Positions 1-15,089 of a stretch of 15,089 nt of DNA are shown here, piece after piece; positions within the stretch are counted from its first letter, which is position 1; each line of letters opens with the position of its first letter. The stretch covers positions 1 through 15,089 of the forward strand of contig JBKPAK010000029.1 in the NCBI GenBank assembly GCA_046726415.1, read 5' to 3'. The stretch comes from Candidatus Methylomirabilota bacterium. GTDB taxonomy: Bacteria; Methylomirabilota; Methylomirabilia; Rokubacteriales; CSP1-6. The notes beneath the pieces are model-generated. The model ran no database searches, was not told where the DNA came from, and saw only the letters and a list, made by a program, of their open reading frames with translations. The position numbers and the translations under genes are program-made.

Positions 1-1256
1 GGACGGCCGTGGCGATAGATCGAGCGGCCCCAGTTCGGGAAGGGTCCGCGCTCCTCGGCCAGCTTCGCGCACTGGTCGTGGGAAATCTCCTTCACGAACG
101 CCATGAGCTGGTCGGCGAGCTCGATAGCCTCCTGGCTGTCATACGGAATACCGAGGAGGAAGAGCAGATCGGCCCAGCCCATGATGCCGAGCCCGATGCG
201 CCGGTTGGCCTTGACCGTCGCGTCGATGTCCGGAAGCGGATAGGGGTTCATCTCGATGACATCGTCGAGGAAGCGCACGGCGAGCCGAATCACCCGCTCC
301 ATCTCCGTCCAGTCGATCGCGGATTCGTCGTTCCCCGAACGGACGAACCGCGACACGTTGAGGGATCCGAGATTGCACGCCTCGTTCGGCAACAGCGGTT
401 GCTCGCCACATGGGTTCGTCGCCTCCACCACGCCGATGTCGGGCGTGGGGTTGGCCGGGCTGGCGTTGATGCGGTCGATGAACACCATACCCGGATCGCC
501 CGTCCGCCAGGCCGCGCGGACGATGCGCGTGAAGACCTCCTTGGCCGGGAGGCGTCCGGCCACCGCCCGCGTGTGCGGGTTGATCAGATCGTAGTCGGCG
601 TCCCTGGCAAGGGCCTCCATGAAGGCCTCGGTCGCCGCCACCGAGATGTTGAAATTGGTGATGCCGCCGTCGAGCTTGCAGTCGATGAACTCGAGGATAT
701 CGGGGTGGTCGACCCGCAGGATGCCCATGTTGGCGCCTCGGCGCGTTCCGCCCTGCTTCACGGCCTCGGTGGCCCCGTTGAAGACGCGTAGAAAGGATAC
801 GGGCCCGGACGCTCGGCCCCCGGTCGACTTCACCAGGTCGTCCTTGGGCCGGAGGCGAGAGAAGGCGAATCCCGTGCCCCCGCCGGACTTGTGGATGATG
901 GCCGCCGCTTTGACGGAGTCGAAGATCTCCTCCATGGAATCGCCCACGGGGAGGACATAGCACGCCGAGTACTGGAGCCGGTTTCCCTTGCCGGCGTTCA
1001 TGAGGGTGGGCGAGTTGGGAACGAAGGCGCCCTCGACGATGATGTCGTAGAAGGCGCTGGCGATCTCCCGCACGGCGGCGGCGCTGCGCCCGTACCGCTC
1101 CTCGCCCACGGCTATGGAGAGGGCGACCCGCCAGCACATTTCCTCCGGCGTCTCAATCACCTCGCCGTCGCGACGCGTGAGGTAGCGCTCTCGAAGGACG
1201 CGAAGGGCCGGGTCGGTCCATTTCCCCACTTTGCTCGGGCGAGTCTCGGACAGCAT
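1..1256 (-). CDS. nrdJ: Class II (adenosylcobalamin-dependent) ribonucleotide reductase, 5' part; runs off the left edge
   Basis: Missing from the ORF track because there is no stop in the window. Hand translation from ATG 1256 gives MLSETRPSKVGKWTDPALRVLRERYL..PNSPTLMNAG..SACYVLP..SGGGTGF..KQGGTRRGANMG..NFNISV..TNPCGEQPL..EACNLGS..NRRIGLGIMG. These are the RNR catalytic motifs in a class II-like context, with no N-terminal ATP cone. RBS AAGGAG lies upstream. Confidence 0.93.
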   Translation of the reverse strand, partial: MLSETRPSKVGKWTDPALRVLRERYLTRRDGEVIETPEEMCWRVALSIAVGEERYGRSAAAVREIASAFYDIIVEGAFVPNSPTLMNAGKGNRLQYSACYVLPVGDSMEEIFDSVKAAAIIHKSGGGTGFAFSRLRPKDDLVKSTGGRASGPVSFLRVFNGATEAVKQGGTRRGANMGILRVDHPDILEFIDCKLDGGITNFNISVAATEAFMEALARDADYDLINPHTRAVAGRLPAKEVFTRIVRAAWRTGDPGMVFIDRINASPANPTPDIGVVEATNPCGEQPLLPNEACNLGSLNVSRFVRSGNDESAIDWTEMERVIRLAVRFLDDVIEMNPYPLPDIDATVKANRRIGLGIMGWADLLFLLGIPYDSQEAIELADQLMAFVKEISHDQCAKLAEERGPFPNWGRSIYRHGR

Positions 1257-1577: not shown

Positions 1578-2978
1578 ATGACGACACACCGGAGGATGGC
1601 CCGCCTCGCCGCTGTTCCGCTGCTCGCCATCCTCGCCAGTAGCGTTCTGAGGACGGCGGCCTGGGGCCAGCCGAGCATGACGCTTCAAGCCACGCCACCG
1701 CCGGCCACGCTGTCACCCATCGGCCCCTCGAAAGCGCCGCCGCCCGACTTGGCCGGCCAAACGGTGAGTCTGGAGGAAGCGCTCGCCATTGCGCTCCAGG
1801 CGCAGCCGCAAATTCAGGCGCGTCTGTACGACTATGCCGCCGCGCGCTTCCGCGTCGACCAAGCCTTCTCGCCTCTGCTGCCCCAACTCACGGCGCAGCT
1901 GTCGGGGCAGCACTCATCGTCGACGGTGCTGACCACCTCGCCGCTTACCGGCTCCTCCGTCCCGGTGCAGGTATCGCGAAGCCTCGAGGATACGTTGATC
2001 GCCCAGGTGCAGCTCTCGCAGCTCCTGTTCGACTTCGGTAAGTCTGTGGCGTCGGTCGATGCCGCCCGCAAGCTGGCCGAGGTCTCCCGGTACGACATCG
2101 AGCTCCAACGCCAGCTGGTGACCCTGGCCGTGAAGGAGGCCTATACCAATACCCTCTTCGCGCAACGTCTCATCCGCGTGCAGCGGCAAGCGCTGGAGCG
2201 GGCCGAGCTGAACCTCAAGTCCGTCCGCGGCTTCTACGACGTGGGCACGCGGCCAAAGTCCGACGTTGTCCGGGCCGAGGTCGACGTGGCCAATGCCCGG
2301 GTCGACAATATCCGCGCCGACAACGCCGAGCGCCTCGCCCGCGTCGCGCTCAACACCTCGATGGGTGTCGCCGCCACCACCAAGTTCGACCTCGTGGACA
2401 ACCTCGTCTACGTCAAGGTCTCGGATTCCGCCGAAGATCTGGTATCGGAGGCTCTCAAGCGCCGGCCCGAGTACGCGCAGGCGAAGCTCCGGATCGAGAG
2501 CTCGGAGAGCCTGCTCAAGCGTTCGTTCCGCGACTTCTTCCCCGACGTGGTCGGCACCGGCTCCTACGGGGCGGTCCGGACTGATTTCAACGAGTCGTGG
2601 ACGGCCGGCATCAGCCTCAACTGGTCCATCTTCGACGGCGGCAACCGGCTGGCGCGCTACCGGGAGGCCAAAGCCAATCTGGAGGCGAGCCAGCAGCGGC
2701 TGAAGGCCACGGAGCTCGACATTTCGCGGGAGGTCGAGCAGGCCCGCTCCACCGTGGTGGAGACCGACGAGCGGATCCTCGCCGCCCAGGCCGCGGTGGC
2801 CTCGGCCCAAGAGAATTTCCGCCTCGTCCAAGGGCGATTCGATGCCGGCGTCGGGACGATCCTCGATCTCACCGACGCCCAGCTCGCCCTGACTCAGGCG
2901 CAGAACGCCGAGGCCCAAGCGCTCGCCGACTTCCGCATCGCCTTGGCCCGGCTGGATCGGGCCCTCGGCCGCAGGTAA
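1578..2978 (+). CDS. TolC-family outer membrane efflux protein
   Basis: 466 aa with a signal peptide and two OEP-like repeats (SLEEALAIALQAQPQI; QLLFDFGK; SLNWSIFDGG; RFDAGVGTILDLTDAQ; ARLDRALG). RBS AGGAGG at 1563-1568. Confidence 0.93.
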   Translation: MTTHRRMARLAAVPLLAILASSVLRTAAWGQPSMTLQATPPPATLSPIGPSKAPPPDLAGQTVSLEEALAIALQAQPQIQARLYDYAAARFRVDQAFSPLLPQLTAQLSGQHSSSTVLTTSPLTGSSVPVQVSRSLEDTLIAQVQLSQLLFDFGKSVASVDAARKLAEVSRYDIELQRQLVTLAVKEAYTNTLFAQRLIRVQRQALERAELNLKSVRGFYDVGTRPKSDVVRAEVDVANARVDNIRADNAERLARVALNTSMGVAATTKFDLVDNLVYVKVSDSAEDLVSEALKRRPEYAQAKLRIESSESLLKRSFRDFFPDVVGTGSYGAVRTDFNESWTAGISLNWSIFDGGNRLARYREAKANLEASQQRLKATELDISREVEQARSTVVETDERILAAQAAVASAQENFRLVQGRFDAGVGTILDLTDAQLALTQAQNAEAQALADFRIALARLDRALGRR

Positions 2979-3008
2979 ATACCTGTTACCCTGAGGACGT
3001 CGTAGCGG

Positions 3009-4682
3009 ATGATGAAGCGCGTCGTCTCGCTGGTGATCGTGGCGGCGCTGGTCGGCGCCGGAGTCTGGGCGTATTTCTACGCCCAGAGCCGCGGCAACGC
3101 GCCTCGATACCGACTGGCGGCCGTGGAGCGGGGCCCCTTGGTCGCCACCGTCTCCGCCAGCGGCAACCTCAACGCCGTCACCACCGTCCAGGTGGGAAGT
3201 CAGATCTCGGGTCAGATCAAGGAGTTGCGCGTCGACTTCAACTCGGTCGTTCGCAAGGACCAGGTGATCGCCCGCATCGACCCGGAGACATTCGAGGCCA
3301 AGGTCGGTCAGGCCCGAGCCGAATTGGAGTCGGCCCGAGCGGTGGTGATGAATCAGCAGGCGCAGATCGAACGAGCGCGTGCCGACGTGGAGAACGCCAA
3401 GGCCGCCCTCGTGGAGGCTCAGGCGCAGACGGCGAAGGCGCGCGTCGCCGTCCTCGATGCGCGGCGCGATTTCGACCGCAAGACCGAGCTGTACCGCCGG
3501 GAGCTGATCGCCAAGAGCGAGATGGATACGTCGCAGGCCACCTTCGATTCGGCCGGCGCTCAGGTCGATTCGCTCCGCGCCAAGGAGCAGGCGCTCGCGG
3601 CGGCCATCAAGTCGTCCGAGGCGCAGCTCAGGGTCGCGGAGGCCACCCTCGAGTCGACACGGGCTCAGGTCAAGCAGAAAGAGGCCGCGCTGGTCCAGGC
3701 GCAGGTCGACCTCGACCGCACGGTGATCCGAGCGCCGGTGAATGGCGTGGTCGTCTCTCGCGCCGTCGACGTCGGTCAGACAGTGGCCGCCAGCCTCCAG
3801 GCGCCCACACTCTTCACCATCGCCCAGGATCTCACCAAGATGCAGGTGGAGACCAGCGTGGACGAGGCGGATATCGGCCGGATCAAGGTCGAGGACCGGG
3901 CCACGTTCACCGTCGACGCCTTCCCCGGCGAGACGTTTGCCGGCACGGTCACCCAGATCCGGAAGGCCGCCCAGGTCGTTCAGAACGTCGTGACCTACAC
4001 GGTGGTCATCGGCGTCGACAACCCCGGCGGTCGCCTGCTGCCCGGGATGACGGCAAACGTCAAGCTCGTGGTGGCGGAAAAGCCGAGCGTGCTGAAGATC
4101 TCCAATGCCGCCCTGCGATTCCGCCCTGCCGGCGACACGACCCCTGGTTCGGGGCCGGCGGCCCGGGGCCAGCCGGCTGGCGGACCCCCAGCTGCGTCCG
4201 GGGGTCCGCAGACCCTCGAGAAGATCCGCGAACGCCTGGTGCAGGGGCTCAAGCTCACCGAAGGGCAGCAGCGAAAGCTCGATCCGATCCTCGAGGACAG
4301 CCGTGCGCAGATGCGCGCTCTGGCCGGCCTGCCCGAGCAGGAGCGCCAGGCCCGCGCCGAGAGGATCCGTGAGGCGACGCGCGCGCGCATCCGGGAGATC
4401 CTGACGCCAGAGCAGCAGGCGCGCTACGACCAGGAAGAGGGGTCGGGACGGCGTGCCGGCGCGACCCCCGGGCGCGCGTGGACCGTAGGCGCCGACGGCA
4501 ACCCGATGGCGGTCTCCCTGATGCTGGGCTTGAGCGACGGCACGGCGACGCAGATCGTCCAGGGCGACCTCAAAGAGGGCCAGGAAGTCATCGTGGGAAC
4601 CGCCGCCGCGGCGACCTCTCCTTCCTCCCGTCCCGGCCCCGCGGCTCCGGGTCCAGCGTCCGGGCCGCGGTTCCGTCCGTGA
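3009..4682 (+). CDS. MacA-like periplasmic adaptor (efflux membrane fusion protein) with an extra C-terminal helical domain
   Basis: 557 aa. N-terminal TM anchor, [11 protein letters not shown] lipoyl half, long coiled-coil hairpin, [31 protein letters not shown] and LLPGMTANV. Confidence 0.92.
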
Positions 4683-5431
4683 TTGTCACCGAGGGCCTGG
4701 CGAAGGACTACCGTCTGGGGCCGTACACGGTGCACGCCCTTCGAGGGGTGTCGACCACCATCGCCGCAGGGGAGTTCGTCGCGGTGATGGGACCATCGGG
4801 GTCCGGCAAGTCGACGTTCATGAATCTTCTCGGCTGTCTCGACACGCCCACCGCGGGCCGCTACATCCTGGACGACGCCGACGTGGCGCGGCTGTCGCGC
4901 GACGAGCTGGCCCGGATCCGCAACGCAAAGATCGGCTTTGTCTTCCAGCAATTCAACTTGCTGCCGCGCACGACGGCGCTGGAAAACGTCGAGCTGCCAC
5001 TCTTCTATTCGAGCCTCCCCGCTCGGGACCGGGGAGCTCGGGCGCACGAGAAGCTGGCTGCGGTAGGCCTGGCCGATCGGGAGCTCCACCACCCGAGTCA
5101 GCTTTCCGGGGGACAGCAACAGCGGGTGGCCATCGCGAGGGCCCTCGTCAATGAACCGGCCGTCATGCTCGCCGACGAGCCCACCGGAAATCTCGACACA
5201 CGGACCAGCGTGGAAATCATGGCGCTCCTCCAACGCCTGAACCGCGAGGGCCTCACCATCATCCTGGTGACCCATGAGCCGGACATCGCGGCCTACGCCA
5301 GCCGCGTCCTCTCCTTCCGCGATGGGCGCCTCCTCGGCGATGCGAACGTGCCGACCCCGGCCGATGCGGCGGGTGCCCTCGCTACCCTCACCGAGGCACG
5401 CGACGAGGAGGTTGCCGAGACGGTGACATGA
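4679..5431 (+). CDS. ABC transporter ATP-binding protein (MacB/LolD-like ATPase)
   Basis: Start reassigned to GTG 4679, which overlaps the adaptor stop as GTGA. Walker [11 protein letters not shown]-loop FQQFNLL, signature [15 protein letters not shown], Walker B/D-loop [11 protein letters not shown] and H-loop VTHE. Confidence 0.95.
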
Positions 5432-6660
5432 ACGTCGCCCAGAGCGTCAAGATCGCGGTGCGCTCGCTTCGGGTGAACAAACTCCGGAGCGCGCTGACCA
5501 TGCTCGGGATCATCATCGGCGTTGGGGCGGTCATCGCCATGGTCGCTGTGGGAGCAGGCGCCCAAGCGCGGGTGGCCGAGCAGATCCAGAGCCTCGGCTC
5601 CAATCTCATCATTGTGCTTTCCGGCAGCGTCACCTCGAGTGGGATCCGCCTCGGACAGGGGAGCCAGCTCACCATCTCTGAAGACGACGCCGCGGCGATC
5701 GCCCGCGAGATCCCCGCCGTCCAGGTGGCGGCCCCCGCCGTACGGGGCACGGCGCAGGTGATCTATGGAAACCTGAACTGGAGCACGGTGATCCAGGGCA
5801 TCACCCCGGACTATCTGGAAGCACGTGACTGGGCGCTTACCAGCGGACGGCCCTTCGCGCAGGAGGAAATCGACGGCGCGGCGAAGGTCGCGCTCGTCGG
5901 GCAAACGACCGCCCTGAACCTCTTCGGAGAGTCCGACCCCGTGGGGCAGATTATCCGCATCCGCAAGGTGCCGTTCACCGTGGTGGGGACACTGGGGCGG
6001 AAGGGCCAGAATTCGTGGGGTCAGGATCAGGACGACGTGATCTTGATTCCGATCTCGACCGCCAAGAAAAAAGTCCTCGGCGCGAGCCAGTCGAATCCGC
6101 GCGCGGTGGGGTCGATCTCGATCAAAGTGCGACCGGGTGAGGACATGCCCGAGGCGGAATCACAGATCCGAGCATTGCTCCGCCAGCGCCATCGCCTCCA
6201 GCCCTACCAGGACGACGACTTCTGGCTGCGGAATCTGGCCGATGTGCTCCAGACGCAGGAGGAATCGTCCCGGGTCATGACCTATCTACTCGCGGCCATC
6301 GCGTCCGTGTCGCTCCTGGTGGGTGGCATCGGCATCATGAACATCATGCTCGTTTCCGTTACCGAGCGGACCCGGGAGATCGGGCTGCGCATGGCGGTGG
6401 GCGCGCGAGGTCGGGACATTCTCGCGCAGTTCCTCATCGAGGCGATCACCCTCTCGCTCATCGGCGGTGTGATCGGAATCGCGGTGGGGTTGGGCGGCTC
6501 GCGCGCGATCAGTTACTTGGCCGAGTGGCGGACGTTCGTGGCCCCCCAGTCCATCGCCGTCGCCTTCGCTTTCGCCGCGGCCGTGGGAGTCTTCTTTGGT
6601 TACTACCCTGCGCGGAAGGCGGCGCGGCTCGATCCGATCGAAGCCCTTCGCTTCGAGTGA
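5428..6660 (+). CDS. ABC transporter permease (MacB/FtsX family)
   Basis: 410 aa. [16 protein letters not shown], a large periplasmic domain, [28 protein letters not shown] and [21 protein letters not shown] overlap with the ATPase gene. Confidence 0.95.
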
Positions 6661-7449: not shown

Positions 7450-8436
7450 TCAGAACAGACCGCGCTGGCCCGTCTGGTTGCGCCGTCTCGTGGCCACGTT
7501 GTGCCGGCCCATCGGAGTGGCGCGCGTTCCCTGAGGCGCCGGCCTCACGGCGATTGGCGATCGGAGCCGGCGGAGGGTGACGAGGTTCCGCCGATCGGCC
7601 AGCGGTTCGGGCTCCTTCGGAGTCTCCAGCACCTTGGGCACATGGGCCAAGCGCGGGTCGTTCAGGATCGCGCGGAACGGGCCGAGGCCGAGATACCCCC
7701 GGCCGATGTGTTCGTGACGGTCGAGCCCGGACCCCAGCGGAGTGCGGGCGTCGTTGAGGTGGAAGGCCAGCAGGGTGCGAAGGCCCACCGTGGCCTCGAC
7801 CTCCTCCATCAGCCGCTCGTGGATGGCCGCCTCTCGAAGGTCCACGCCGGCGGCAAACAGATGACAGGTATCGAGACAGACGCCGAGCCGCTCCGAGTCC
7901 CGCGTCCGGCCGACCATCGCCGCGAGCTCCTCCATGGTTCGTCCGAGGGTATGGCGGCCGCCGGCGGTGTTCTCGAGGGCCACCTTCACCCGGTAGCCGG
8001 CCGTACGGCGGAGCACCTCGTCCAGAGCTGCTGTCACGCGACGCATTCCGGCTGAGCATCCGGCGCCCAGATGCGACCCTGGATGCACGACGACGAACGA
8101 CAACCCGAGCGCCTCCGCTCGCTCCAGCTCGTCGGTCAAGGCGGCCACCGATCGGTGCCACGCCGCGGGAGCGGGGGAGCCCAGGTTGAGCAGGTAGCTG
8201 GCGTGCGCGAACACCGTACCGATTCGGGTGCGTCGCCGCGCCTCCCGGAACAGGTCCACCGCCTCCCGATGGAGAGGAGCGGCCGCCCACTGGAGCTGGT
8301 TCTTGACGAAGAGCTGTATCGCCCCGCAGCGGAGAGCCTGCCCGCGCTCCAGGGCTCGGTGGAACCCTCCTGCCACCGACATGTGTGCCCCGAGCTCGTC
8401 GACGGCTGGCCTCAGTCCGGCTCGCGCTGCCTGCAT
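7450..8436 (-). CDS. nfo: Endonuclease IV (deoxyribonuclease IV, AP endonuclease)
   Basis: LGAHMSVAGG, IQLFVKN, FAHASYLLNLGSP, VVHPGSH, LENTAG, VCLDTCHLFAAG, FHLNDA, DRHEHIGRG and VLETPK give the trinuclear Zn ligand set. The start is ATG 8436 or GTG 8448; 8436 is preferred because an extended -10 TGCTACCGT covers 8455-8447. Confidence 0.95.
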   Translation of the reverse strand: MQAARAGLRPAVDELGAHMSVAGGFHRALERGQALRCGAIQLFVKNQLQWAAAPLHREAVDLFREARRRTRIGTVFAHASYLLNLGSPAPAAWHRSVAALTDELERAEALGLSFVVVHPGSHLGAGCSAGMRRVTAALDEVLRRTAGYRVKVALENTAGGRHTLGRTMEELAAMVGRTRDSERLGVCLDTCHLFAAGVDLREAAIHERLMEEVEATVGLRTLLAFHLNDARTPLGSGLDRHEHIGRGYLGLGPFRAILNDPRLAHVPKVLETPKEPEPLADRRNLVTLRRLRSPIAVRPAPQGTRATPMGRHNVATRRRNQTGQRGLF

Positions 8437-8476
8437 CGCCTCCGTCACGGTAGCATGCGCCTGGCCGCCATGGGCG

Positions 8477-8996: not shown

Positions 8997-10220
8997 TTAC
9001 AGAGCAGCGCCCGCAACCGCCCCCACGGCGTCGGGAACAGCGTTGGGAATCGAGCGGGCCCGTTCCAAGCGTACGGCCCACCGTCCATCATCGTCGCCGG
9101 GGATCCACCTTATATAGTGTTGCAGTGTGGTGGTGATCTTCACGTGCCCCATCTGTTTCGCCACGTAGGCGATCGGGGCGGGCGGGACGTCCCTCGCGGG
9201 GTCATCGTCGTGCCGCCCGGCGAGCAGGTGACAAGCATAGGTGTGGCGTAGATCGTAAAGCCGATGCCGCGCCACGCCGGCCCGCACGAGGGAGCGCTTG
9301 AGGCGGTGCGACCACGTCTTGACGTTTGCCGGCCGCTCGCCGAGGCCCTCGGCCATGACCCACGCCACGGGCTCGCGGCCGGCGAGCAGGGCCTCAGCCT
9401 CCACCGCGGTCTGCCGGGCATCGAGGGCCGCCGCGAGCCGGGGCGTCAGTGTCACCCGGCGCGCCTGCCCGGTCTTCGTGCTCTTCACCCGACCATGCGC
9501 GAGTGAACGCCCGACGTTGAGCGTCCGCCCCACGGGGTCGAAGTCGGGCCACTGGAGGGCCAGGCCCTCGCTCGGGCGGAGCCCGGTGTCGGCGAGGAGC
9601 ATGAAGTAGAACCACTCCCGTGGGCGCGCGAAGGCCAGGAGCGCGCCTAGCTCTTCATGTGAGAGCGGACGCACCGCCTTATCCCGGTCGCTCTGTCCGA
9701 CGGTGTCGGGCCCCTTGCGCCCGGGTCGCGTGAGGTTGGCGCAGGGATTCATGGGGAGCAGGCCAGCCTCCACTGCATCGCCAAGCGCTACCGAGAGCGC
9801 GCTCCGGATAAGTCGCACCGTGTTCTTCGAGAGCCCCGCGCCCCGCTTGGCCGCCAAGAACGCCTTAACGCGGTCGCGGGTGATCGCGTCGAGGCGTAGA
9901 GGGCCAAACTCGGGCAGCACGTGCTGTCGGAAGAGGTAGCGATACGAATGGCGCGTGTGCTCGGCGAGGTGGGGGAGGGTCCCGCTCTGCCACTGCTCCA
10001 CCCAGGCCGCGAACATCGGCGCCGTCGCCCTCTTCGGCCCGATGCCGGCCTCGCCTCGGAGAATCTTCGCCCGCGCGACGCCAGCCAGCTCGCGCGCCAC
10101 CGTGCGGCTGATGCCTCGGCCCAACCGGGTTACATGGCGCTGGCCCTGGAACATGAAATCGAGGTACCACGTGCCGCCCTTGCCACCCCGTTGATAGAGT
10201 CCGTCACCGCGTCGCGCCAT
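8997..10220 (-). CDS. Tyrosine recombinase / phage-type integrase
   Basis: 407 aa. Arm-binding-like N-terminus (GLYQRGGKGGTWYLDF), core-binding SAM-like region (HVLPEFGPLRLDAITRDRV), and catalytic R (TGLRPSE), K (TKTG), YDLRH, GH and nucleophile Y (LQHY). RBS GAGGAGG. Confidence 0.95.
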   Translation of the reverse strand: MARRGDGLYQRGGKGGTWYLDFMFQGQRHVTRLGRGISRTVARELAGVARAKILRGEAGIGPKRATAPMFAAWVEQWQSGTLPHLAEHTRHSYRYLFRQHVLPEFGPLRLDAITRDRVKAFLAAKRGAGLSKNTVRLIRSALSVALGDAVEAGLLPMNPCANLTRPGRKGPDTVGQSDRDKAVRPLSHEELGALLAFARPREWFYFMLLADTGLRPSEGLALQWPDFDPVGRTLNVGRSLAHGRVKSTKTGQARRVTLTPRLAAALDARQTAVEAEALLAGREPVAWVMAEGLGERPANVKTWSHRLKRSLVRAGVARHRLYDLRHTYACHLLAGRHDDDPARDVPPAPIAYVAKQMGHVKITTTLQHYIRWIPGDDDGRWAVRLERARSIPNAVPDAVGAVAGAAL

Positions 10221-10316
10221 CAGGTGCCCTCCTCACTCATGAACGCTCTCCCCCCCCCCAGCCTCCGGCCTCGGCGGCAGCGCCACGACGTTGGCGCCAG
10301 TTGGTCCCGTCCTGCA

Positions 10317-10592
10317 CTATCCCTTCATCCAGATCTCGTGGCAGGTTTCGTGAAATCGACGCTCGCCTGATACCCAGTGGGACTCGGCCCGGATTTCCTT
10401 ATCGCACGCACAGCAGATCTTCCCAGCTTCGCGCGCAAAGCGGTCGGGGTCGCGCTGATACCGTGTTATCAGGCCCTGCACGATCCTGTCCCGAACCGTC
10501 GCAGCGATCTCCGCGCATTTCGGACATGCACCCTCGTCGTCGATCTGCCCGGTAGCGCCACAAGCCTCGTACTTGCACGTCCCCATAGCCAT
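10317..10592 (-). CDS. Small Cys/His-rich hypothetical protein (putative double Zn finger)
   Basis: 91 aa with C-x4-C..CxxC and (C)CxC..HxxC. Strong RBS AAGGAG immediately after the XRE stop, so probably co-transcribed. Confidence 0.7.
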   Translation of the reverse strand: MAMGTCKYEACGATGQIDDEGACPKCAEIAATVRDRIVQGLITRYQRDPDRFAREAGKICCACDKEIRAESHWVSGERRFHETCHEIWMKG

Positions 10593-10604
10593 AGCCTTAC
10601 TCCT

Positions 10605-10808
10605 TCACTCCAGCAGATCCGTCACCGGCACGCCGAGGGCGCGGGCGAGCTTCTTCAAGGTCGGAAGGGACGGCTGCTTCCGCGCGCCCGTCTCAAGCAT
10701 CGCGATATAGGCTCCGGTCACTTTCGCCTTCTTCGCGAGGCCGCGCTGGGTCATCCCTTGTTGCTCACGAAGCCGACGAATCATGGCACTCAGCCTCTTG
10801 GGCGACAT
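10605..10808 (-). CDS. XRE/Cro-like helix-turn-helix transcriptional regulator
   Basis: IRRLREQQGMTQRGLAKKAKVTGAYIAMLETGARKQPSLPTLKKLARALGVPVTDLL is a classic HTH_3 pattern. Alternative start ATG 10784, preceded by AAGAGG. Confidence 0.92.
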   Translation of the reverse strand: MSPKRLSAMIRRLREQQGMTQRGLAKKAKVTGAYIAMLETGARKQPSLPTLKKLARALGVPVTDLLE

Positions 10809-10836
10809 GCTAACAACCAGTTAGCACGACAGTCAA
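10807..10836 (-). promoter_or_regulatory. Sigma70 promoter with overlapping palindromic operator
   Basis: Minus strand TTGACT (10836-10831), 18 nt, then TAGCAT (10812-10807) with an extended TG. The perfect inverted repeat TGCTAAC-N5-GTTAGCA at 10808-10826 overlaps the spacer and -10. Confidence 0.72.
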
Positions 10837-10933
10837 GCGCGATTCTCCTGGTAGCGCACTCAGTTCACCAACCGCCGCGCCGTCCACGCCCGGAGGACCA
10901 TCGGCTTGTGTGCGGTGCCGGCTCGCTCTTGCC

Positions 10934-12041
10934 TCAGGCGCCGTCTTGCACGAATTTGAACCCCAGCCGGAGGGAGAGCTCCGCCCGAGTGAGCTCCTTG
11001 CCGAGATACGCGGCGTGGCCCAGCTGCGTGACCCAGCCATTTTTGATGATGGTTGAGTAGATGCTCTTGGCGTCGTGGCCCTCGATGACCCGCAAGAGAC
11101 GGTTGTCGTAGGCATAGTGTTCTACAAGGACTGATCCCTTCGCCGGCTGCTGGAGGATGACGAAGTAGCCCGCCCGGTCCATCTCTACACGGGGATTCCT
11201 GGGCCAGCACGACCGGCGTGACTGACGTAGCCTGTGGCGAAACTTCCTCGACGTGCGGCTCGGCGGAGTCTGGCTTGCGCCCCAGCTCCGTGATGGCATC
11301 GAGGATCTGCGCCGTGTCCTCGCGCCCTATGAGGTCAACGATGCGGACTTGCCGGCGGAAGGACTCGACCTCCTCACGCGTGACGTTCCGCAGGATTGGG
11401 TGCTTGCCGAGGGACCCGATGACACGCATGCGCTTATCGACACCGTTCGCACCGAGCGAGAGCAGTGTCTGGCCGCTTCGGTGTCCTTTTGGCTCTCTCC
11501 CCACGACCAACAGCGTGCGAATCGTGGGATTCATGATCGTGTTCTTGACGATCTTGTCGATCCCGATGTTTTCTGTCTCCGTCTTGCCGACGATGCAGAG
11601 TTCGCGCGGTCGGGCCGCCGCCAGCGCCTCAGCCAGCTCCACACTCGCGAGAGTTGAGACGGCCACCGGGCAGCTCGGGCCGTCACAGAAGGCGGAGTAC
11701 TCGCCGGGCACCGCCGGCCAGGTCTGCTCTTTGAGCTCGAACCCGCACGAGAGGGCCCGATCCTGGTAGGCCTCGGGGAACGCCTCCCGGACTACATTCA
11801 TGGCCACGGCGGGGAAGCAATGCTCGCACCCTAGACAGGCATACTGAATCGGCCGGAGCTGGCGCTGCCACTCCTCAACGAGGTTGACAAGCTCCCTGGC
11901 GGCGGGGACCTCGACTGCTGGGAGTCCGCTGCGGAGCACCTCCAGCGTTTCCTCCATGCACCCGCACTTCTGACACTTCACGAGCCCCATGCCCTCTTGA
12001 AGCGCGGCTCGCACCCGGTCTAGCGCGTCTCGGTCGGTCAT
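10934..12041 (-). pseudogene. Cys-cluster + MtrA-like corrinoid domain + DUF4346-like protein, split by a frameshift near 11190
   Basis: Frame 1 from ATG 12041: CQKCGC..CLGCEHC..WPAVPGEY..VAVSTLAS..IVGKTETENIGIDKIVKNTIMNPTIRTLLVVGREPKGHRSGQTLLSLGANGVD..RVIGSLGKHPILRNV..VESFRRQVRIVDLIG, which follows the MtrA pattern. Frame 2: MDRAGYFVI..VEHY..IEG..HAAYLGKELTRAELSLRLGFKFVQDGA, a DUF4346-like pattern, with stop at 10934. Confidence 0.8.
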
Positions 12042-12269
12042 GTTCCACCCCCATTGCACGTCACTCTCGCCGAGGGGCCCTCCCATCATTCGGGCATCCC
12101 TCGATGGCGCGATGCTACCTGAGAGGCCCCCAGAAGCGCACGGGCGGCTTCTGGCGAGACTTCCGTCGCTCGGAAGGGTGAGGACATCCGCCTACCGTCT
12201 CGGCGTAGCTGCTTTGTGCATGGCCATTCCGGTTGATCCGGCCCGGTCTAGCAGCATAGAAACTCGAGG

Positions 12270-13082
12270 ATGGAATCCTCGAGTGGACGAGGCCCGTTTG
12301 CTGCAGCTGTAGCCGGCGCCGGCGTCGGCATCCTGGGCGGTCTGCTCGGCTTGGGCGGTGCCGAGTTTAGGTTGCCGCTGCTCGTCACGATCTTTCGCTA
12401 CACGCTCCGCCGAGCGGTCTCGCTGAACCTCGCCATCAGCTTCGTGGCCGTCGTAGTGGCCGCTGCCTCCCGATGGGTCCTCGCCGAGCAGGCGCCCCTG
12501 GCGAGCGCGACAACGGTAGCCGTCTGCATGATGGTCGGCGGCATGGCCGGCGCGGCGCTCGGCTCCCGGTGGCTGGCGCGGCTCTCCGACGAGAGGCTTC
12601 ATACCGCGGTCAGGACACTCCTCGTGTCCATCGGTCTGCTCCTCATCATCGAATCGGTCACGCCGTGGACCGCGACCGGCCTGTCGGTCAGTCCTATCGT
12701 GGGCGGCATCGTGGCCGCGCTCGCGGGCGTCATCATCGGCGCGGTAAGCACCATCCTCGGCGTCGCCGGGGGTGAACTGATCATCCCGACACTGGTCCTG
12801 CTGTTCGGCCTGCCAATCAAAACCGCTGGGACGACGAGTCTGCTCATCAGCATCCCGACGATGCTCGTCGGGCTTGCGCGGCATCGGGCACGCGGGGCGT
12901 TTCAGGAGGTTGCCGAAGTTCGGCGCGTCGTGGTGCCGATGGGGATCGGCACGGTCCTCGGGAGTGCGTCAGGCGGCTTGCTGATCGCCTACGCGCCAGC
13001 CGGAGCCCTGAAGCTGCTCCTTGGCGTCGTCCTGATTGCCTCGGCGCTCCGAGTCTTCGAGACGCCGCGGGCCCGGGCTTGA
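12270..13082 (+). CDS. TauE/SafE (TSUP) family membrane transporter
   Basis: 270 aa, about 8 hydrophobic segments in two repeats, carrying GGLLGLGGAEFRLP and LGVAGGELIIPTL motifs. Confidence 0.9.
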   Translation: MESSSGRGPFAAAVAGAGVGILGGLLGLGGAEFRLPLLVTIFRYTLRRAVSLNLAISFVAVVVAAASRWVLAEQAPLASATTVAVCMMVGGMAGAALGSRWLARLSDERLHTAVRTLLVSIGLLLIIESVTPWTATGLSVSPIVGGIVAALAGVIIGAVSTILGVAGGELIIPTLVLLFGLPIKTAGTTSLLISIPTMLVGLARHRARGAFQEVAEVRRVVVPMGIGTVLGSASGGLLIAYAPAGALKLLLGVVLIASALRVFETPRARA

Positions 13083-13519
13083 GCGAGGCGTCGAACCGAC
13101 TGCCTAGGAGGGGCAAGTTGCTGCTGTTGTCGACGAGCATGAACTCTCCGAAATTGTCGAGCTGGACGCCGGGCTGATCTGTGGGTGTCCTGCGAAGATG
13201 TTAGGTCACCTGCCCAGAAAGCACAACGTACAGCGGGTGCGCCGGCTGGCACCCCCTAGCCACGGGGGTTACACCCGCCCGCCCGGCCCTCCGCGGCGCC
13301 GATGGTACACTCAACCCCGATCAAACGCCTGCCCAAGTACGCCGGCCTCTGTCTCGAACACCGCAAGGTCGTCGGGGGCGACAGTTACACTGACGTGTAG
13401 CACTGGGCCGTGTTTCACGCGAAGACGTGGCGCTGCTCGTCGCCGACGGTTGATGAAACTCGGGTCATCCGGCGACTGATCGACGAGCATGGCGGCATCG
13501 ACGTCGTGCTGGGGTCGAA

Positions 13520-13692
13520 ATGACCTGCGGTCAGTGTGTGGACGGCTGGGTCTGCGAGGTCCACCCGGACGCGGACTGCGTGGAGGAGTGCGGTGTAGGG
13601 ATGCCGTGCCCGAACCCCTCGTGTCCACTGTCGTGGGCGACGGAGACGGATCTCGTGACCGGCCTCGTCCGTCCGCATGGGACCGACGGTAC
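13520..13692 (+). pseudogene. N-terminal part of a small Cys-rich protein, truncated by fusion to an ATPase fragment
   Basis: MTCGQCVDGWVCEVHPDADCVEECGVGMPCPNPSCPLSW has 7 Cys and 1 His in 39 aa. After about 13693 the protein-like signal switches to another frame. Confidence 0.45.
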
Positions 13693-14286
13693 GTGGCCGG
13701 GCGCTCCCACGAGAGCGAGCAGATCCTGCCGTTCGGCCCCTGGGTCGACGCGTTGCGGGCCGGGCAGGTGGTGGAGGACCGGCGATGGTTCGCGACCCTG
13801 CCGCTGGCTATCCGGCGCGAGCTGGGACGTCTTCTTCCCGAGCTCGGGTCAGAGGATGGAGAGTCGGCGGCTCCTCCTGACTACCTACAGCTCTTCGAGG
13901 GGGTGGGCCTGCTCCTCGGGCATGTGGTGGAGGGGCAGCCGACAGTCCTGATCCTCGAAGACCTCCACTGGGGCGACGAGATGAGCGTCAGGTTGCTGGC
14001 GTTCATCGGACGTCGTCTTCAGGCGTGGCGGCTCCTCCTGATGGTGACGGTGCGCGGGGAGAACCTGGTCGACGCGCCGATGCTTCAGCGGACGCTCGCC
14101 GAGCTGGAGCGCGAGCCCCACGTGGCAACGTTGGGGCTCGGGCCACTTTCGAAGAGTGATACAGCCGACCTCGTCTAGGCGCTCGCGCGTCCGGGAAGTG
14201 GGGAAGCGGCGGTGGCTCGCCTGAGTGAACAGATATGGCGGACCAGCGGGGGGAATCCCTTCGTCGTGATCGAGGCGATGCGGGCG
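13693..14286 (+). pseudogene. Internal fragment of a STAND/AAA_16 NTPase (SARP/LuxR/cyclase-associated type)
   Basis: GRSHESEQILPFGPWVDAL..LGRLLPEL..LFEGV..VLILEDLHWGD (Walker B)..LGPLS. An in-frame TAG lies at 14176-14178, and the same frame continues as IWRTSGGNPFVVIEAMRA (GxP motif). Walker A and the C-terminal domains are absent. Confidence 0.82.
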
Positions 14287-14648
14287 GGTTCACCAAGCCG
14301 ACGACCGGCGGGCGGATCTTCTACAGTCTGCTGACCGTCTCCCTCGCGGCGGAGACCCTGGTCGAAAGTTTCCACGCCGGCCGTCTCGACGCGGGGTTCC
14401 TGGCGCGCTACGAGCGGCGCTGGCAAAGCATTCTGGTCCCTGAGCTCAGAGTGGCGCGCTGGCTTCGCCACGTTCTCGCCAAGTGCACGGACTTGGAGAT
14501 CGGTCAGCTGCTCGCCGCCTTCGTCAGCCGCGAGGGTCAGAACGCGGTACGGAAGGCGGCCCGCTTCAACTGGCACCGCGATCTGATCCTCACCCTCGCT
14601 CGCCATCGGCCGGTGGCCCTGCTCTTGGTGCGCCTCTTTGGCCGCTGA
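14274..14648 (+). pseudogene. 3' fragment of a geranylgeranyl-reductase-family FAD oxidoreductase
   Basis: GDAGGFTKPTTGGRIFYSL..LARYERRW matches the GDAAG..P.tGgGI FAD-binding motif and C-terminal helices of this family. The N-terminal Rossmann fold is missing. Confidence 0.72.
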
Positions 14649-14688
14649 AAGGAGACCGCCCGCCGCCGACGATTGAGCCCGGATGATC

Positions 14689-15089
14689 TCACCGGCTCGG
14701 TCTTGCCTGCTCCCGCACACACCACACGTTGCCCTTCCAACGGGCGTCGATTTCCCTTCTCGACACCAGCGCGCGCCGCCCTTCGTCGACGAAGTGCACG
14801 TCGAAGCCGAGCTCGTCCAAGTCGTCGAGAAGGCGTTGTCCGCCCGACCGTCCGCCCTCTTCGCTCGCGGTCAGGGCCTCAGGATTCAGCTCGACCATCA
14901 GCGTCACCGAACGGGCACGACGAACGAGTCGCCGCATGCCCCGCAGGACGAGCGGCTCGGCCCCTTCCACGTCGAGCTTGACCACGAACTGCCCTCCCTC
15001 GAACGGGTGGAGCTCGTGGTCCAGCGTGGTCGTCTCGACCCGCACATCCCACGCTCCCCCCAGATCCCACCATCGCCTCGCCATCAGCG
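14689..15089 (-). CDS. FkbM-family SAM methyltransferase, 3' part; begins beyond the right edge
   Basis: VETTTLD..VVKLDVEGAEPLVLRGM..LMVELNP..LDELGF is the FkbM (Methyltransf_21) C-terminal pattern. The frame is open to the window edge. Confidence 0.85.
   Translation of the reverse strand, partial: LMARRWWDLGGAWDVRVETTTLDHELHPFEGGQFVVKLDVEGAEPLVLRGMRRLVRRARSVTLMVELNPEALTASEEGGRSGGQRLLDDLDELGFDVHFVDEGRRALVSRREIDARWKGNVWCVREQARPSR

Follow-up and report, generated by a model that had tools for sequence, protein, structure and literature searches.

The window considered here is the whole of contig JBKPAK010000029.1, 15,089 bases of a 7.6-Mb draft genome of a Candidatus Methylomirabilota bacterium that is 98% complete. 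Its subject is a minus-strand gene whose product joins three parts: a Cys-rich N-terminal domain (N-domain), a corrinoid-binding domain of the MtrA type, and a DUF4346 tail (Table 1). A preliminary description, made from the letters alone, had recognized the Cys motifs, the MtrA-like domain and the tail, and all three are borne out by Pfam, by the NCBIfam model NF002128 and by direct reading of the sequence. The probable start is the ATG at 12041 (MTDRD...), which is preferred to an alternative upstream ATG at 12089 because the homologues begin there in the alignment. The gene stands head-to-head with a gene for a TauE/SafE-family membrane protein, and downstream of it, on its own strand, lie genes for an XRE-family helix-turn-helix (HTH) regulator, a 91-aa Cys-rich open reading frame (ORF) and a tyrosine integrase. 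The gap to the transporter gene, put at about 230 bp in the preliminary description, measures 228 bp, and the assignments of the regulator and the integrase hold.

In the present assembly the three-domain gene is read in two frames. The MtrA domain occupies aa 121-274 of the ORF at 12089..10860 in the Pfam search, and DUF4346 falls in the ORF at 11299..10934 with 77.3 bits against a gathering score of 29.6. NF002128, a model of 390 positions, aligns with both pieces in order, over positions 8-283 and then 285-370, and the two are therefore one gene cut by a frameshift. The break was compared with Logan contigs of four soil-metagenome runs, which are contigs and not raw reads of the source sample. 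Both runs that reach the site (X1 and X2) have G6 instead of G4, with GG after 11190, and a 400-aa protein from another contig (P0001) is 100% identical, intact, and reads ...QESPRVEMD... over the break. Since G6 restores the frame, either faulty assembly or a rare variant accounts for the break, which appears to be absent from the natural population. The window also lacks two nucleotides, AC at 12183, that are present in all four runs; the assembly may carry systematic short indels, and other broken-looking ORFs on the contig may be artefacts.

Table 1. Features of the 15,089-base window, with the evidence for each.
Feature	Position	Strand	Evidence or remark
Three-domain gene (Cys-rich N-domain, MtrA domain, DUF4346)	10934..12041	-	Frameshifted in the present assembly
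Stop codon of the three-domain gene	10936..10934	-	Sequence read directly
Cys-rich helical N-domain, aa 1-109	11715..12041	-	Conserved Cys; AlphaFold2 model
CxxCxC motif	11975..11958	-	Sequence read directly
CxxCxxC motif	11837..11817	-	Sequence read directly
MtrA-type corrinoid-binding domain	11262..11726	-	PF04208, E 8.3e-37
His codon of the E-P-K-G-H-R-S-G-Q motif	11483..11481	-	Sequence read directly
DUF4346 (PterinBD-DUF4346) domain	10943..11182	-	PF14251, E 1.6e-21; read in the second frame
Frameshift site	11191..11194		G4 on the plus strand, read as C4 along the gene
Divergent intergenic region	12042..12269		228 bp from ATG 12041 (180 bp from ATG 12089)
54-nt indel	12080-12133		Comparison with metagenome contigs
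Short repeat, 53-nt piece	12108-12160		2 other genome copies
TauE/SafE-family membrane protein	12270..13082	+	PF01925, E 2.6e-32
50-nt interspersed repeat just past the gene's stop codon	10860..10909		13 other genome copies
Promoter-like site of the XRE gene	10836..10807		Promoter scan
XRE-family HTH regulator	10605..10808	-	HTH_3, E 8.1e-18; PHROG transcriptional regulators
91-aa Cys-rich ORF	10317..10592	-	CxxxxC, CxxC and CCxC pairs
Tyrosine recombinase, phage-type integrase	8997..10220	-	PF00589, E 2.1e-15; phrog_1 integrase, E 1.3e-55
nrdJ	3..1256	-	TIGR02504
OEP/HlyD/ABC/MacB efflux set	1578..6660		
Xylose-isomerase-like TIM-barrel gene	7450..8448	-	
AAA_16 match	13489-14178		32.7 bits against a gathering threshold of 32.6

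The central domain is the part of the protein closest to a characterized structure. The full-length AlphaFold2 (AF2) model (predicted local distance difference test, pLDDT, 76.5) finds its best Protein Data Bank matches by Foldseek in 5l8x and 5laa, MtrA and cytoplasmic MtrA homologues of methanogens (PF04208), with E of about 1e-12, 40-43% identity and a template modelling (TM) score of 0.76-0.81 by target; the Rossmann-type corrinoid fold is the same. The His of GHRSGQ is aligned with His84, the cobalt ligand in 5laa, which is the M. fervidus MtrA-cobalamin complex. Further cobalamin contacts given for MtrA are Tyr18, Thr53, Asn55, Gly57, Val61 and Asn64 (Wagner 2016, PMC4915002). The equivalents of these residues and of His84 are conserved in 93-94 of the 94 homologues, and the window protein likewise keeps the cobalt ligand and the nucleotide-tail contacts. 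Because the cobalamin site is conserved in this way, cobamide binding by the three-domain protein is strongly predicted.

Compared with canonical MtrA, the window protein has no C-terminal membrane helix, since in both sequence and model it finishes with DUF4346, and it has neither an mtr operon around it nor MtrH in the genome. It carries in addition the N-domain and the DUF4346 tail, and it scores 118 bits on the mtrA equivalog TIGR01111, below the cut-off of 249.15. The lack of a membrane anchor, the lack of other mtr genes and the non-methanogenic setting had all been part of the preliminary description, and each of them stands: there is one MtrA-family match in the whole 98%-complete genome and none for MtrH (PF02007), in a search made for MtrA and MtrH only and not for subunits B-G, and no mtr gene adjoins the three-domain gene. 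Its expectation that the host uses cobamides is supported as well. The nrdJ gene is genuine by TIGR02504 (494.6 bits against a cut-off of 399.95), and the host encodes CobS and CobD, so that synthesis or remodelling of cobamides is possible.

The module had been put forward as a candidate for an undescribed system; its three-part architecture is not one of a kind. One search, in which 8000 candidates were scored, returned at least 1240 proteins at E<=0.001, mostly of 365-395 aa with PF04208 and PF14251, and the curated model NF002128 (PRK00964.1-6, 'tetrahydromethanopterin S-methyltransferase subunit A') covers the same architecture end to end. The name of NF002128 is an inherited label, and the function behind it is a prediction; in its intact form the window protein reaches 415.6 bits against a curated cut-off of 568, with coverage of positions 8-370 of 390. 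Source databases that name such proteins call them either 'MtrA' or 'DUF4346 domain-containing protein'. When one genome of each species was scanned, 171 loci were confirmed, and what follows uses the best 80. These are patchily distributed over more than 15 bacterial and archaeal phyla, with taxa that include Acidobacteriota, Bacteroidota, Cyanobacteriota, Chloroflexota, Nitrospirota, Thermodesulfobacteriota, Verrucomicrobiota, Omnitrophota, Nitrososphaerota, Thermoplasmatota, Methanoperedenaceae and others. Homologues from both domains of life are 46-63% identical to the window protein, and archaeal and bacterial rows are interleaved in a quick tree, from which 13 of the 80 loci were dropped for length. 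The architecture is thus no singleton but that of a conserved family, with members about 375 aa long, which is widespread and unstudied. A literature search whose coverage stopped short of subscription journals yielded no paper on the family; a match for MtrA-like corrinoid proteins concerned Asgard MtrA/MtrAH, which is different from it. Bacterial and non-methanogen homologues of MtrA are described as existing, with an unclear role, in two sources (Wagner 2016, PMC4915002; Adam 2022).

The N-domain sets this family apart. In addition to the two motifs listed in Table 1 it has a further conserved Cys at aa 99. The conserved His and Cys residues that the preliminary description called for among homologues are present: beside the cobalt ligand, nine Cys are shared by 93 or more of the 94 sequences, six of them in the two motifs and the others at residues 130, 150 and 155 of P0001. 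Modelled alone with AF2, the domain is confidently predicted as an all-helical bundle (pLDDT 85.9; predicted TM score, pTM, 0.81). No Pfam family matches it, even with E allowed up to 10, nor does anything in the ESM Atlas, and the best Foldseek match in the Protein Data Bank, at E 1.1, gives no informative fold. Generic helical bundles were set aside, the best VIA-align Z of 5.9 being under the noise level stated for helical models. This lack of a fold match does not show a new fold. A search of 1.84 billion representatives gave 205 matches at E<=0.001; among the 19 that were scanned of the 150 listed, 14 have an MtrA domain, four belong to no family and one is a TPR/CHAT protein, which is probably a chance match. 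Judged by these matches, the N-domain is nearly exclusive to the three-domain family.

One position in the second motif is informative about what the domain does. In three of the 80 loci (L060:3829, L071:1621 and L081:8259) an in-frame TGA takes the exact place of the first Cys codon in CxxCxxC. All three are Syntrophia/Deltaproteobacteria-type homologues, a conserved hairpin follows the TGA by about 15 nt in each, and SelB is above the curated cut-off in their genomes; furthermore, five of eight short representatives examined end just before this Cys. The TGA homologues are probably selenoprotein forms split in two by gene callers. A selenocysteine form would suggest a site that is reactive or binds soft metals, more than a structural one. 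The TGA at a motif Cys thus speaks for a site of that kind rather than for the unproven Fe-S role that the preliminary description had considered for the Cys domain. The window gene has TGT (Cys) at 11837..11835 and not TGA. A locus from a Caldarchaeum metagenome-assembled genome (L025) has a TAA or TAG stop where CxxCxC should have its third Cys, so that two ORFs are called; either the copy is broken or the sequence is in error.

The genes beside homologues supply the functional context. ORFs up to 6 kb from the gene were clustered by BLASTP in the 80 loci, and recurrent clusters were named with Pfam and NCBIfam. The most frequent is an ArsR/SmtB metalloregulator, found in 21 of the 80 loci as 25 ORFs, 24 of which lie upstream and 22 share the strand of the family gene, the space searched being equal in both directions. 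A CxC metal-site motif is present in 16 of these ORFs, and five more have a CmtR-like Cys pattern that is sub-threshold on the CmtR model. Next comes a GCCGxP membrane domain without a Pfam match, seen in 17 loci: it is fused N-terminally to the family protein in nine, encoded just upstream in six and downstream in one, and weak in one. A protein of about 127 aa, with a signal or transmembrane segment, an OB-like domain and a Cys pair, is found in 13 loci. An HMA P-type (P1B) ATPase follows in ten, DUF302 in eight, a CzcA-type pump in seven and ACR3 in five; HlyD-type proteins, an ArsC-type phosphatase (LMWP), an S-adenosylmethionine (SAM) methyltransferase and DsbD are present in four loci each, MerR and CsoR-type regulators in three each, and ArsP in two. 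At least one metal-type neighbour is present at 35 of the 80 loci, and at 30 of the 62 that extend for at least 6 kb, a count in which the membrane domain was not yet included.

Several of these partners also occur within the same polypeptide. An ArsR HTH is fused to the family protein in P0141 and the 127-aa protein in P0134, and the membrane domain is attached C-terminally in P0263 and N-terminally in P0128, P0136 and P0265. Such fusions strengthen the link of the family to ArsR, the 127-aa protein and the membrane domain. The membrane domain is likened to MerT by its CCxxP-type motif only, and its match to the MerTP model NF033556 is sub-threshold, at E 0.015 and 14.9 bits where the cut-off is 180. 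Full operons are found, for example, at L037, L042 and L020.

The reading that we favor, at a probability of about one half, is that the family consists of cobamide proteins of a thiophilic-metal(loid) response and not of methanogenesis, and that the window holds a partner-less, horizontally acquired copy. The link to metals rests on the recurrence of ArsR, the HMA ATPase, ACR3, ArsC and others beside homologues, together with the fusions. On the evidence of sequence, family members would be soluble or membrane-tethered proteins in which a Cys/Sec-rich helical domain precedes an MtrA-fold corrinoid domain and DUF4346. A metal(loid), free or thiol-bound, would reach the Cys/Sec domain in the cytoplasm, and complete systems could deliver it there through the small extracytoplasmic Cys protein and the GCCGxP membrane domain, in a relay like that of MerP and MerT. 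The Cys/Sec domain may then present the metal(loid) to the exposed cobalt of a His-on cobamide, and the cobalt would transfer a methyl group or electrons. The favored chemistry would move a methyl group onto or off the bound metal(loid), a functional parallel to HgcAB. More tentatively, and with less than even odds, the family could be the catalytic member of a counterpart of mer built on a cobamide, in which Hg, As, Cd or Pb, passed on by the exported Cys protein and the CCxxP membrane domain to the Cys/Sec domain, is methylated, demethylated or reduced at the cobalt.

A number of observations weigh against a metal(loid) role, for the family or for this copy. No metal-type neighbour was found by clustering at 45 of the 80 loci, or at 32 of the 62 that reach at least 6 kb. 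The parA-parB pair recurs at 11 of the 80, all from one Nitrospirota lineage, which is best read as lineage synteny. No methyl-donor enzyme, whether MtrH or another corrinoid methyltransferase, recurs beside the family in the 80 loci, and the source of a methyl group is therefore unaccounted for. The window itself contains no ArsR, no mer or ars gene or transporter of either type, no membrane domain and no 127-aa partner; neither of the last two was found elsewhere in the genome, in a weak search that used single-protein queries and had no positive control. The window copy also lacks Cys271, which is kept in 91 of the 94 homologues and replaced by Arg in this one alone, and it lacks any linker Cys, of which at least one is present in 78 of the 94 and two or three in 73. 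This copy may have diverged in function. Metal(loid) detoxification, which the preliminary description had named as a possibility, is thus backed by the neighbourhoods of homologues (ArsR, P1B-ATPase, ACR3) and not by the locus itself.

The homology to MtrA allows a different account, in which the protein is a corrinoid/Fe-S carrier of one-carbon units whose N-domain re-reduces cobalt through an Fe-S cluster while DUF4346 docks a pterin methyltransferase. DUF4346 also occurs in archaeal dihydropteroate-synthase-like proteins (TIGR00284, E 6e-14), the CxxCxxC segment has a sub-threshold match to the Fe-S motif of PsaC (E 7.5), and methyl funnelling is proposed for MtrA/MtrH of non-methanogens in two papers (PMC9635834, PMC11291895). 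However, the genome has no MtrH, no methyltransferase partner recurs in the 80 loci, and homologues have metal-sensing regulators of the ArsR type next to them, most of which carry CxC. The TGA at a motif Cys is also unexpected, as selenocysteine is not expected to be an Fe-S ligand. We consider it unlikely that the protein is such a carrier, shuttling methyl groups in ordinary metabolism, for example in methionine or cofactor synthesis.

Under the metal(loid) reading, the nearest functional relative of the family would be HgcAB, likewise a corrinoid protein with a Cys-rich redox or metal partner, ArsR-type control and horizontal spread; the last two are stated for hgcAB in a preprint (bioRxiv 10.1101/2022.10.17.512643). 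The three-domain family differs from HgcAB in having a corrinoid fold of the MtrA type instead of the corrinoid iron-sulfur protein (CFeSP) type, and in being a single polypeptide. Pfam at E<=0.01 gives only MtrA and DUF4346 for the window gene, with no CFeSP-type domain, and the window protein has neither a ferredoxin-type 2x[4Fe-4S] motif nor an adjacent ferredoxin gene. The Mer relay of MerP, MerT and the N-terminal Cys domain of MerA offers a second comparison. Complete systems of the family elsewhere share with it an exported Cys protein, a CCxxP-type membrane domain and a cytoplasmic Cys domain, and these Mer-like parts lie in one ArsR-controlled operon or in one polypeptide. The end station would be a cobamide in the family, whereas in Mer it is a flavin reductase, and none of the relay parts is present in the window.

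The fusion of an ArsR HTH to the whole protein in P0141, together with the position of the window gene, head-to-head with a transporter gene and beside an XRE regulator, could also suit a sensor or regulatory module, in which the Cys domain and the cobamide would respond to a metal, to the redox state or to B12 and thereby govern transcription or a transporter, TauE for instance. This is quite unlikely, as P0141 alone has such a fusion among 19 scanned representatives of greater or unusual length, arsR is usually a gene of its own that comes first with the family gene as cargo, and the very high cross-domain conservation (55-64% identity) is typical of enzymes.

The preliminary description had also anticipated a recurrent linkage to TauE-like genes, and none was found. 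The TauE assignment itself is firm (112.8 bits against a gathering score of 32.6). Nevertheless, TauE is present in none of the 80 homologous loci (blastp, no match even at E<10) and in none of 11 loci from other genomes of the same phylum (flanks of about 1.5 kb; the unpublished G087 is among them), and a search of 40 relatives at E<=1e-20 did not find it. In the host genome TauE is accessory, like the three-domain gene, and the family does not keep it as a partner. A unit of two genes, TauE and the corrinoid protein, dedicated to sulfur oxyanions or related anions would be in keeping with the head-to-head arrangement at 228 bp, with the failure to find either gene in the 40 relatives searched, and with the contig of a related strain (X2), which continues beyond the start of the gene on the side of TauE. 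Given that TauE does not recur at homologous or same-phylum loci and that no sulfur-metabolism gene recurs, we hold this to be very improbable.

The origin of the window copy, as distinct from the role in metal(loid) response proposed for its family, is told by its relatives. The three-domain gene is found in none of the 40 examined, of which two are from the same genus, 22 from the same family and 16 from the same order. Eleven of 250 other genomes of the phylum (including G087) have a match, with identities of just 33-42% that fall below those of matches from other phyla; ArsR adjoins three of the seven full-length copies among them and TauE none, in the same flanks. Because no relative among the 40 carries the gene, an integrase is adjacent and the same-phylum copies are distant, the window gene was likely acquired horizontally, as the preliminary description had proposed. 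In the quick tree the window protein groups with P0003 in an unresolved mixed group, and no donor lineage can therefore be named. There is no tRNA in the window, and the repeats around the integrase are short and at chance level, with no convincing attachment (att) repeat; as the contig also ends at 15089, the borders of the element are not definable. The window copy is a partner-less one, likely acquired horizontally, with an integrase/XRE module on one side and TauE, itself accessory, on the other.

A gene with this history could be functionless, decaying cargo of an integrated element. The frameshift in the assembly, the loss of Cys271 and the linker Cys, the failure to find the usual partners in the genome, the adjoining integrase/XRE module and downstream ORFs that look broken, among them the AAA_16 fragment at 13489-14178, all fit that description. 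On the other hand, P0001 and both metagenome contigs that cover the break are in frame, the second 2-nt indel, which differs from all four runs, suggests assembly error, every other conserved residue is kept, and the sister sequence P0003 (75% identity) is intact. Decay in the host genome is therefore an unlikely account of the locus.

If cobamide action on metal(loid)s proves correct, the family would represent a new enzyme class for mercury and arsenic cycling. It would provide a second B12-dependent route of metal(loid) transformation, unrelated to HgcAB, that spans bacteria and archaea and includes selenoprotein variants. It would also give a role to the 'methanogenesis-type' MtrA genes of non-methanogens, and explain gene calls that are labelled as an Mtr subunit or cut at a selenocysteine codon. 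To this the window contributes a mobile, partner-less example, a clear negative for TauE and evidence that the frameshift is not real in nature. For work on mechanism it is not the best locus, and full-operon loci such as the three named above are better suited.

The rest of the locus adds detail. In the divergent intergenic region the 54-nt stretch of the indel is absent, with one other letter instead, from contigs of two runs and from the P0001-type strain. The promoter scan finds no promoter-like site inside this region; the sole such site outside coding sequence precedes the XRE gene, which thus has its own. No terminator-like site lies in 10250-12400. The two short repeats, one intergenic and one downstream of the gene, fold no better than shuffles, and many unrelated soil-metagenome contigs match the downstream piece at 10860-10909 alone. 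The 91-aa Cys-rich ORF, which lies between the XRE and integrase genes, has zero matches in Pfam, NCBIfam or PHROGs. The remainder of the contig is ordinary and holds nrdJ, the efflux set and the xylose-isomerase-like gene. Beyond the AAA_16 match, which is barely over its threshold, short family-less ORFs continue on both strands to 15089, and the stretch 13489-15089 may be a large STAND-type gene split by indels, or decayed island cargo.

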